DNA from: a phage
Reading direction: 5' to 3' (one strand)
Length of the DNA: 64,000 nucleotides
Sequence record: PZ179880.1
The notes beneath the pieces were generated by a model, which saw nothing but the letters and a program-made list of their open reading frames with translations, was not told the origin of the DNA and did not search any database. The position numbers and the translations under genes were made by a program. Below, piece by piece: positions 57,072-58,410 of this stretch (positions within the stretch are counted from its first letter, which is position 1; every line of letters begins with the position of its first letter).

Positions 57072-57850
57072 TAATTAAAAATATATACTTCATCAGTTCC
57101 ATTCTTTTCTTTGGAATGATATATGTTAAAGACGTATTTTTTATTAAGATGCTTAACATTATATTTTTTAGACCATTCTTTAAGAAGAGTGTTTTCCTTT
57201 CCGTGATGCTCTAAAACATTCGACAGTCCAAATTTTATTCCTCTGTCATTTAAAGAATCTAAAAGATTTAAAAGGTCTTTTTCTTCTTCTTCTGACCAAA
57301 ATTTATTATAATCAGCAACTGTTATAAGATATGGAGGGTCCACATATACAAAATCGCCGTCTAGAATTTTGACATCTTTAAAATGCAATGAACTAAAGAT
57401 TATTTTATCACAATTTTGTTTAAAGTGATTAAAGCGTTTTTCACTATTTTTGTTTATAGTTCTTTTTCCAAACGGAGTAGTAAAATTTCCTTTATCGTTT
57501 ATACGAATCATATTACTAAACCCGTGAAAATGAAGAACATAAAGTAAAAGAGGATCTCTAGTTTTATTATAATCTTCACGTAATTTCAAAAACTCTTCTT
57601 TTGATGTTTTTGATAGTTTGTATTGCTTTATTACTTTTAAAACGTCATCCCATGATACATTAATAAGACGCTTATACATTTCAATAATTGGTTCTTGAAT
57701 ATCATTGGCCAATACAGGACCATTGACGTTCAAAGACACTGATAAACCTCCACAAAATAAATCCACGAATCTGTCATATTTTGGAAAGTGAGGCTTAAGT
57801 TCAGGTAATAATGATTGTTTATTACCTGTATACGCGATAGCTCCTAGCAT
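57071..57850 (-). CDS. dam: DNA adenine methyltransferase (GATC, Dam family)
   Basis: 259 aa; catalytic DPPY motif (YVDPPYLIT). Confidence 0.85.
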
Positions 57851-58410
57851 TATATTCTCTCATTTATTGCAGCAAAAAACGAATTATATAATTCTTCATC
57901 ATATGTATTTGATAGTAATACTAACACGTTTTGTGATTTAGCATATTCATTAAACCTTGCTTGGATGGTTGGATTATCAGTAAATGATTCTCTTTTTGTC
58001 CATTTATTACGTGGATAATATCCGCATGGCAAAAAATCTAATATCATCAATGACACAGGGTTTTCAGTTTTTGTGTATTCTTTTAATTTCTCTTTATCTT
58101 CTAAATATATTCCAACCGAATCAATAGCTGTACCTCCACCAACTTGGTGTTTAATTTCAATTATATGCTTTTTACCGTTGCGAGAAATAACAATATCAAA
58201 TCTTCTAGTACGCTTCTTAGTTATAAAATTAGAACAAAACAAATTATTTGATTTTTCAGTATCATCGGTTAAAACCATTTTTTCTTGATAACTAACTGAA
58301 CAATCAGTGAAATATTCTTTTACTTTATTAAGTATGAAATTTTCAACTACGGCAGATATTTTATATGAATCTCCGTTTAAAGCCATTTCATGCACAATTT
58401 TATTAATCAT
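57850..58410 (-). CDS. hypothetical protein with PD-(D/E)xK-like nuclease motif
   Basis: 186 aa; segment [19 protein letters not shown] has D..(12)..E-x-K spacing; TAATG overlap with dam. Confidence 0.45.

Follow-up and report, generated by a model that had tools for sequence, protein, structure and literature searches.

Immediately 5′ of the dam gene in this phage DNA, on the minus strand, lies a 186-aa ORF (57850..58410; coordinates refer to the window, the whole 64,000-nt stretch analysed) whose product resembles PD-(D/E)xK endonucleases with the MunI/EcoRI fold. The reading that we favor, with a probability of roughly 0.55, is that this ORF supplies the R half, and Dam the M half, of a GATC-directed cassette of a Type II restriction-modification kind borne by the phage.

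The ORF and its setting

The ORF begins with an ATG and ends with a TAA at 57852..57850. The gene that follows, dam (57071..57850, minus strand; 259 codons), encodes a Dam-type, D12-class N6-adenine methyltransferase (PF02086, MethyltransfD12, E=6.5e-51), and its T4 homolog is annotated as a GATC methylase. The dam ATG and the ORF stop have one base in common (TAATG), the junction being read as ...ATATAATGCTAGG; this 1-nt overlap, described in a first-pass annotation of the region, can be read directly in the sequence. Upstream of the ORF, also by direct reading, is a GAGGA ribosome-binding site 7 nt 5′ of the ATG (58418..58422, minus strand). A consensus scan picks out a promoter-like site, (G)TTTACT-17-TG-TATTAT, further 5′ (58436..58465, minus strand). 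The first-pass annotation took this as an early promoter belonging to the ORF: the site is there, and three GenBank records annotate a promoter in the stretch upstream of the ORF, but such sites are no more numerous in this AT-rich region than in shuffled sequence, so that the promoter is only plausible. Promoter, ORF, and dam together make up a cassette of 1,428 bp (57071..58498, minus strand), which lies between the gene 56 promoter and an ORF for a small membrane protein. Two Tequatrovirus genomes, Yersinia phage ZN18 and Escherichia phage a51, match the window with 100% identity over 2 kb.

Close to the 3′ end of the ORF is a homopolymer run of six Ts (57874..57879, minus strand), an indel hotspot. 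Where one T is missing, the product has 181 aa and ends in SFLLQ, and the stop no longer overlaps the dam start.

The ORF belongs to PHROG family 8706 (E=5.7e-116), whose function is given there as unknown. Homologs with 29-64% identity occur in three genera of Tevenvirinae and in metagenomic contigs; the named phages carrying them are Dhakavirus MX01 and Klebsiella Jiaodavirus phages such as KPV15. Among the closer homolog pairs pN is 0.18-0.28 vs. a pS of 0.57-0.87, non-synonymous differences being the rarer kind in every pair, and dN/dS is about 0.1-0.2 where dS is unsaturated, slightly above the value for dam itself. Because pN is so far below pS, and because homologs are found in three genera and in metagenomes, the ORF is by these measures a real gene, selectively maintained and far beyond a chance open frame.

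Its sequence family, judged by the searches made here, is tiny. A family profile compared with 1.84 billion representative proteins gave 11 matches, all of them members of the phage family or artefacts (the chimeras P0008 and P0010 and the repetitive P0016). A database-wide k-mer/HMMER search with an 8-sequence profile (E<=10) returned nothing further beyond the phage family, fragments, and chimeras. Neither of these two database-wide profile searches gave a bridge from the ORF family to DpnII or to any bacterial restriction-enzyme family. Neither the single protein nor the family profile had a match among PDB sequences, even at E<=10, and an NCBIfam search of the ORF protein returned only noise.

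Fold and active site

An AlphaFold2 model with six family members as input (mean pLDDT 80.3, pTM 0.79) has a predicted core order of helix-strand-strand-strand-helix-strand, which is the alpha-beta-beta-beta-alpha-beta restriction-endonuclease core of the PD-(D/E)xK superfamily. An independent BFVD model of the MX01 homolog agrees with it (TM 0.92). Foldseek comparison with the PDB gave three matches at E<=0.001 (VC1899, AF1548, and McrC), all within the same nuclease superfamily; another fold search of the model listed, after its top matches, Can2, McrC, BstEII, PfoI, PspGI, Bse634I, BsoBI, NgoMIV, Cfr10I, AgeI, SgrAI, and EcoRI. The structural similarity of the model to EcoRI/MunI-like enzymes in the fold search is strong. 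Model and matches together bear out the restriction-endonuclease fold proposed from the letters alone, and on this modeling the ORF protein has a PD-(D/E)xK restriction-endonuclease fold closest to those of MunI/EcoRI-type enzymes. MutH and Sau3AI, to which the first-pass annotation had likened the pair, are missing from every fold-search match list for the model, and a MutH/Sau3AI-like identity was rejected for that reason.

The D-(12 aa)-E-x-K arrangement noted in the first reading is present as D72, E85, and K87, with 12 residues separating D and E. D72 is in the predicted second strand (67-77), and E85 and K87 are in the third (80-88); this placement of a conserved acidic residue and a (D/E)-x-K strand is canonical for the superfamily. 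Loss of these residues among homologs, which would have spoken against a nuclease, is not seen: all three are invariant in nine sequences reaching down to 29% identity, along with E23 (on the first long helix), Q42, S54, R69, I73, I75, H82, H88, Q89, G93, T94, A95, I96, D97, S98, L109, P118, S120, and D125. Codons R69-S98 (58117..58206, minus strand) form an invariant catalytic and probable DNA-contact block, by invariance in the same nine sequences, containing R69, D72-I-x-I, H82, E85-x-K87-H-Q, and G93-T-A-I-D-S98.

Direct sequence comparison with the two structural relatives gives much less. The MunI and EcoRI sequences used for hhalign were verified against PDB 1d02 and 1ckq. With MunI there is a single, weak local match (P=0.023), of ORF residues 66-91 to MunI 77-104, whose register places D72/E85/K87/Q89/G91 on MunI D83/E98/K100/Q102/G104, as the structure predicts; with EcoRI the catalytic core was not aligned. 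The hhalign probabilities are 2% for MunI and 0.4% for EcoRI, and the overall sequence similarity is not significant.

By eye, the ORF reads E-I-K-H-Q-V-G and then G-T-A-I-D-S; the counterpart motifs are E-A-K-H-Q-G and then G-N-A-I-E-R in EcoRI, and E-I-K-R-Q-D-G and then G-N-A-H-E-R in MunI. The EcoRI resemblance is a lead, not a result, because hhalign failed to recover it.

Several features set the phage protein apart from these orthodox Type IIP enzymes. The loop from K-H-Q to G-x-A-I has three residues in the ORF, 12 in MunI, and 23 in EcoRI; the partner is a GATC Dam, not an AATT-type methylase; and the ORF is encoded by a virulent phage.

Similarity to DpnII

DpnII is a GATC-specific enzyme of Streptococcus pneumoniae whose cognate methylase, DpnM, is a Dam homolog recognizing GATC. 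The DpnII family (PF04556) is the top Pfam match of the ORF protein, at E=0.0045 and 16.8 bits against a cut-off of 23, and it is the top Pfam family for four of eight family members, always over about positions 143-235 of the 278-position profile. The best member (P0009) scores 22.5 bits (E=8.3e-5), slightly below the 23-bit cut-off. Membership of the DpnII/MboI family would take a score above the gathering threshold over most of the profile; what is found is this sub-threshold similarity, covering about a third of it. DpnII is thus the best-scoring of about 24,700 Pfam families, and matches the specificity of the neighboring methylase, with membership not established. With a Type II restriction-endonuclease model in PADLOC, the window protein has E=9e-5, and the best E value in the family is 5e-6. 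The phage pair resembles DpnII/MboI systems in this partial similarity and in having a Dam-like GATC methylase as partner, and differs from them in that the protein is about 100 residues shorter and that the gene order is R then M, where that of DpnII is M-M-R.

In GenBank, the Shinka record labels the ORF “putative DpnII restriction endonuclease”; the other records examined call it hypothetical. None of seven neighborhoods opened around plasmid-borne relatives of T4 Dam contains a DpnII-family nuclease: four have AlwI-type enzymes, one a FokI-type enzyme, and two none listed.

Linkage to dam

In each of 10 distinct contexts (covering the window, MX01, L013, L014, L006-L009, L010, L004, L005, and KPV15), the start of a D12 methylase gene lies between -35 and +1 nt relative to the stop of the ORF. 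Stop and start overlap by 1 nt in the window, MX01, L013, and L014, and abut in L006-L009. The overlap is 4 nt in L010, where the downstream gene is 64% identical to Dam, and 7 nt in KPV15; with the distant homologs P0014 (in L005) and P0011 (in L004) it reaches 20 and 35 nt. Co-occurrence with dam, suggested earlier as a check, therefore holds in that the ORF abuts or overlaps a Dam-type methylase gene in each of these contexts, and the restriction-modification-like arrangement first seen in the window is found in every relative.

The pair occupies at least three genome positions: in Tequatrovirus and Dhakavirus it lies between genes 61 and 56, in Jiaodavirus KPV15 between topoisomerase and the rIIB/endonuclease region, and in L005 immediately 5′ of an rIIA homolog. 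That it stays together while moving argues for a functional tie. Adjacency to, and co-inheritance with, a methyltransferase gene is what is expected of the nuclease gene of a Type II system, and it is found both in the 10 contexts and in a sample of 508 phage records described below.

These observations bear on the possibility that the ORF encodes an active nuclease that has nothing to do with GATC or Dam, acting in host-DNA breakdown, recombination, or repair, and merely has an operon in common with dam. Without a functional link, it would be difficult to account for Dam adjacency in 10 of 10 contexts spanning three loci and 29-64% identity, and the one Pfam family that comes out on top is the one that matches the specificity of the neighboring methylase; we regard an unconnected nuclease as unlikely.

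A deletion in T4

Between dam and gene 61, the T4 record (NC_000866) has no gene annotated, as the first-pass annotation had it; an insertion into the window lineage was suspected from this. The insertion did not hold up. In the 309-bp dam-61 spacer of T4, 87 bp from the 3′ end of the ORF survive, with about 96% identity, and by pairwise alignment the spacer is without a segment of 548 bp (57938..58485, minus strand) that comprises the promoter-like site at 58436..58465 and the first 473 nt of the ORF. In the window, this segment is flanked by 8-bp direct repeats, ATCACAAA, at 58485..58478 and 57937..57930. The remnant, and the 548-bp gap between copies of the repeat, point to a deletion in T4.

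In Dhakavirus MX01 the same locus carries the same genes, with amino acid identities to the window of 64% for the ORF, 63% for gp61, 70% for gp56, and 76% for Dam. The ORF has diverged in step with its core neighbors and so is old in the lineage; by these identities, the cassette predates the split of Tequatrovirus and Dhakavirus. An insertion into a T4-like ancestor is ruled out by the T4 remnant together with the MX01 synteny.

T2 has a full-length gene with a frameshift (five Ts for six), giving the 181-aa form ending in SFLLQ, with its stop 14 nt 5′ of dam. The T4 remnant and the T2 allele have three differences in common (a G, an A, and T5 for T6). The simplest history suggested by these alleles is that the frameshift came first and the deletion later, in the T4 line.

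Presence, absence, and decay

Among 508 related phage records matching the region, the ORF and dam are both present in 147-149 (about 29%, T2 with its C-terminal frameshift being counted here), dam is accompanied by the 87-bp remnant or another partial ORF in about 34 (about 7%), and neither gene is present in about 325 (about 64%, including T6, RB51, RB32-type phages, CT01, and PST). In the records without the cassette, the match ends at window position 58499 and resumes at about 57030-57038, at the gene 56 promoter. No record among the 508 has the ORF without dam. Orphan methylases are therefore seen and a lone nuclease never is, as is typical of Type II restriction-modification, though with few independent events: the three main classes could go back to a few founding events spread by recombination, and the statement that R never occurs without M is statistically limited for that reason. 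Across the contexts and records, gain, loss, and relocation have affected the ORF and dam together.

Damage to the ORF, with dam kept, has arisen independently on several occasions: in the T2/T4-line frameshift, in the T4 deletion, in phage 107 (a separate T5 frameshift on a window-like background, with dam intact), and in KarlGJung/Bas37 (a 371-bp deletion, 58419..58049, plus a T8 run, with dam intact). A 142-aa form of the ORF is on record for phage G29. This pattern of loss looks, by analogy, like the decay typical of restriction-modification pairs, in which loss of the nuclease comes first and the methylase may outlast it.

The same damage, in T2, T4, phage 107, KarlGJung, and G29, without obvious harm to the phage, would also fit a relic without catalytic activity, or a protein that binds DNA and regulates dam expression much as a controller protein does, as would the fact that the literature search found no report of such an activity in T-even phages. 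A dead enzyme would, however, be expected to lose its catalytic residues, and here the canonical ones are all invariant, and purifying selection extends over deeply diverged homologs. Known controller (C) proteins are small and of the helix-turn-helix kind, unlike a full nuclease domain. A dead or purely regulatory protein seems very improbable to us.

Presence/absence polymorphism is also what a selfish homing endonuclease would produce, by cutting cassette-less T-even genomes near the 61/56 junction with Dam as a passenger; SegF and SegG of T4 home in this way, by cutting, after which repair copies the element in. Such a role would overlap with that of a restriction enzyme if a GATC-cutting enzyme also biased recombination in mixed infections. 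Against it, the pairing with dam is kept at three positions in three genera, which argues for a functional tie to Dam and not to one insertion site; the cassette has diverged as much as the core genes beside it, which indicates long vertical descent at 61/56; and no match to GIY-YIG (Seg) or HNH (Mob) nucleases is found in Pfam or PHROG, the fold being PD-(D/E)xK. Homing as the main role is quite unlikely.

How the cassette might work

If the ORF is the R half of a GATC-directed cassette, its protein would be made early, from its own promoter and on one transcript with dam. It would be a small, Mg2+-dependent enzyme, probably a homodimer, cleaving at or around GATC sites with unmethylated adenine. 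The hosts concerned (E. coli, Shigella, Yersinia, and Salmonella) are Dam+, which would leave their DNA largely immune, and the likely targets would be other DNAs in the infected cell that lack full GATC methylation. Candidates are co-infecting phages without dam (of the T6/RB51 type), other phages, plasmids, and under-methylated host DNA. The phage's own DNA would be spared by Dam methylation together with glucosyl-hydroxymethylcytosine (glucosyl-hmC), and the latter form of self-protection is plausible because T4 DNA resists 214 of 227 (94%) of the Type II enzymes tested in vitro (PMC7653180). The “orphan” Dam of T4 would be what remained after deletion of the R gene.

One argument against this scheme is the gene order: R lies 5′ of M, and translation of M is coupled to that of R, which is unusual for a system that needs protection first. 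A nuclease working with Dam by another logic, in which Dam creates or completes the substrate, would need no protective delay. In a DpnI-like version it would cut Gm6ATC in cytosine-containing host DNA, glucosyl-hmC phage DNA being spared; in a MutH-like version it would make nicks directed by hemimethylation. The linkage to Dam fits such methylation-dependent or hemimethylation-directed schemes equally well, and in Dam+ hosts a methyl-sensitive enzyme looks pointless against host DNA, where a methyl-dependent one would have the whole chromosome as its target. The ORF protein has no methyl-reading domain, however, and its nearest relatives are orthodox enzymes; under this logic, moreover, genomes with the ORF alone should be tolerated, yet the 508 records include none. 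We think a DpnI- or MutH-like partner unlikely. The first-pass annotation had offered both a homing and a modification-dependent nuclease as options, and an orthodox partner of Dam is more likely than either.

GATC, with 78 occurrences against 213 expected (ratio 0.37), is the most depleted of the 256 tetranucleotides in the window. A 50-kb stretch of RB51, which has no cassette, is as depleted or more so, with a ratio of 0.29; the depletion is therefore lineage-wide, compatible with the cassette idea but not specific to it, and was discounted as evidence. The classical explanation for GATC depletion is a host-based one, MutH/Dam.

Comparison with other viral methylases

Among the closest known systems are chlorovirus pairs such as R.CviAI/M.CviAI, specific for GATC, which consist of a Type II nuclease and an adenine methylase carried by a lytic virus, which methylates its own genome and aims the nuclease at other DNA in the infected cell. 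The phage cassette is like them in uniting a predicted nuclease and a GATC methylase in a lytic virus. It differs in that the chlorovirus target is unmethylated host DNA, whereas the T-even host is Dam+ and the phage DNA is protected by glucosyl-hmC as well.

The orphan methyltransferases of lactococcal 936-type phages are derived from restriction-modification systems (PMC4190342). T4-type genomes with a methylase and no nuclease are similar, and the 87-bp remnant shows the origin of the orphan directly. The lactococcal methylase was captured from a host system in order to evade it (PMC4190342); in the T-even case both genes are long-standing in the phage, and it is the nuclease that was lost, within the phage lineage.

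Implications for T-even phages

A full-text literature search, with the 1988 T2 dam paper and REBASE outside its scope, found no description of the ORF gene. The fold and the type of system are already known; the sequence family appears to be new, and so does its setting, that is, a virulent phage with hypermodified DNA, R 5′ of M and translationally coupled to it, and a host that is already Dam+. Reading T4 Dam as a decayed restriction-modification system appears to be new as well. The frameshifted 181-aa form in T2 may explain why an activity has gone unreported, or may mean that none exists. Phages with the ORF intact, frameshifted, deleted, or absent all occur naturally and are in culture collections.

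The Dam proteins of T4 and T2 are the textbook “orphan” phage methylases, and their benefit to the phage was never clear. About a third of sequenced T4-type phages, and relatives in two other genera, have a restriction-enzyme-like gene fused in expression to dam. If it encodes an active GATC endonuclease, a virulent phage with hypermodified DNA carries its own Type II restriction-modification system, and the restriction-enzyme repertoire would gain a family of very small enzymes (186 aa) with no sequence relation to the known ones. Phage-versus-phage or phage-versus-plasmid warfare would then be a function for Dam. More tentatively, and as a possibility that we would not yet bet on, T-even phages may long have carried an active GATC-specific restriction-modification weapon against the unmethylated DNA of rivals, with Dam marking self. 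If so, it would give T-even Dam a purpose, the T4 deletion and the T2 frameshift would explain why the system never revealed itself, and the weapon may have contributed to GATC avoidance in T-even genomes.

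GATC Content and Relatives of the T-even Dam

Of the 256 tetranucleotides, GATC falls furthest short of its expected count, both in the whole window (78 observed vs. 213 expected, a ratio of 0.37) and in positions 1-50000 of RB51, a T-even phage without the cassette of promoter, nuclease-like ORF and dam (49 observed vs. 166 expected; ratio 0.29). The second most depleted palindrome is TCGA, with a ratio of about 0.6.

The nearest plasmid-borne relatives of the T-even Dam are about 40% identical to it over their full length (L015, L017, L018, L019, L024, and L025); these are methylases of Type IIS systems of the AlwI or FokI type, from Lactococcus, Enterococcus, and Staphylococcus. 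Dam of the E. coli type is farther away, with about 28% identity over two thirds of the length.

Genomic Setting of the Pair

Other T4-like lineages carry the ORF-dam pair at different genome positions: in the Klebsiella phage KPV15 (Jiaodavirus; L026 2495..3852) it lies downstream of rIIB and of a gene for a denB-like endonuclease; in a metagenomic contig (L005 141..1599) an rIIA homolog follows directly downstream of it.

The window (56026..56492, vs. L001 1107..1781 in T4) lacks segF, which in T4 codes for a homing endonuclease and sits between gene 56 and soc; its space is filled by a 66-aa ORF (56292..56492) and other small ORFs, and a 118-aa RB32ORF033c-like ORF (59904..60260) stands in place of T4 gene 61.2. 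Between gene 61 and the cassette, on the opposite strand, is an ORF for a predicted membrane protein, also of 66 aa (58510..58710, + strand; phrog_2024, equivalent to RB32ORF030w), which has a 4-nt overlap with the stop of gene 61; its T4 copy is intact (L001 3239..3439), and has no annotation in NC_000866. Downstream of gene 61, but still upstream of the cassette promoter, a hairpin with a T-run after it resembles a terminator (58522..58547, − strand). This hairpin would set the ORF-dam pair apart as its own transcription unit.

Coupling and Expression of dam

The last codons of the ORF include a run of six Ts (57874..57879, − strand) whose length differs among phages: there are five in T2, in the remnant found in T4 and, independently, in phage 107, and eight in KarlGJung. 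Each of these changes throws the ORF out of frame, and its stop is then no longer coupled to the start of dam. In T2, T4, and KarlGJung, dam is preceded, about 45 nt before its ATG, by the extended -10-like element TTGTATAAT; the window sequence at this position (about 57888..57896, − strand) is TTATATAAT. TTGTATAAT could be an internal promoter, sustaining dam expression once T4 had lost the upstream promoter.
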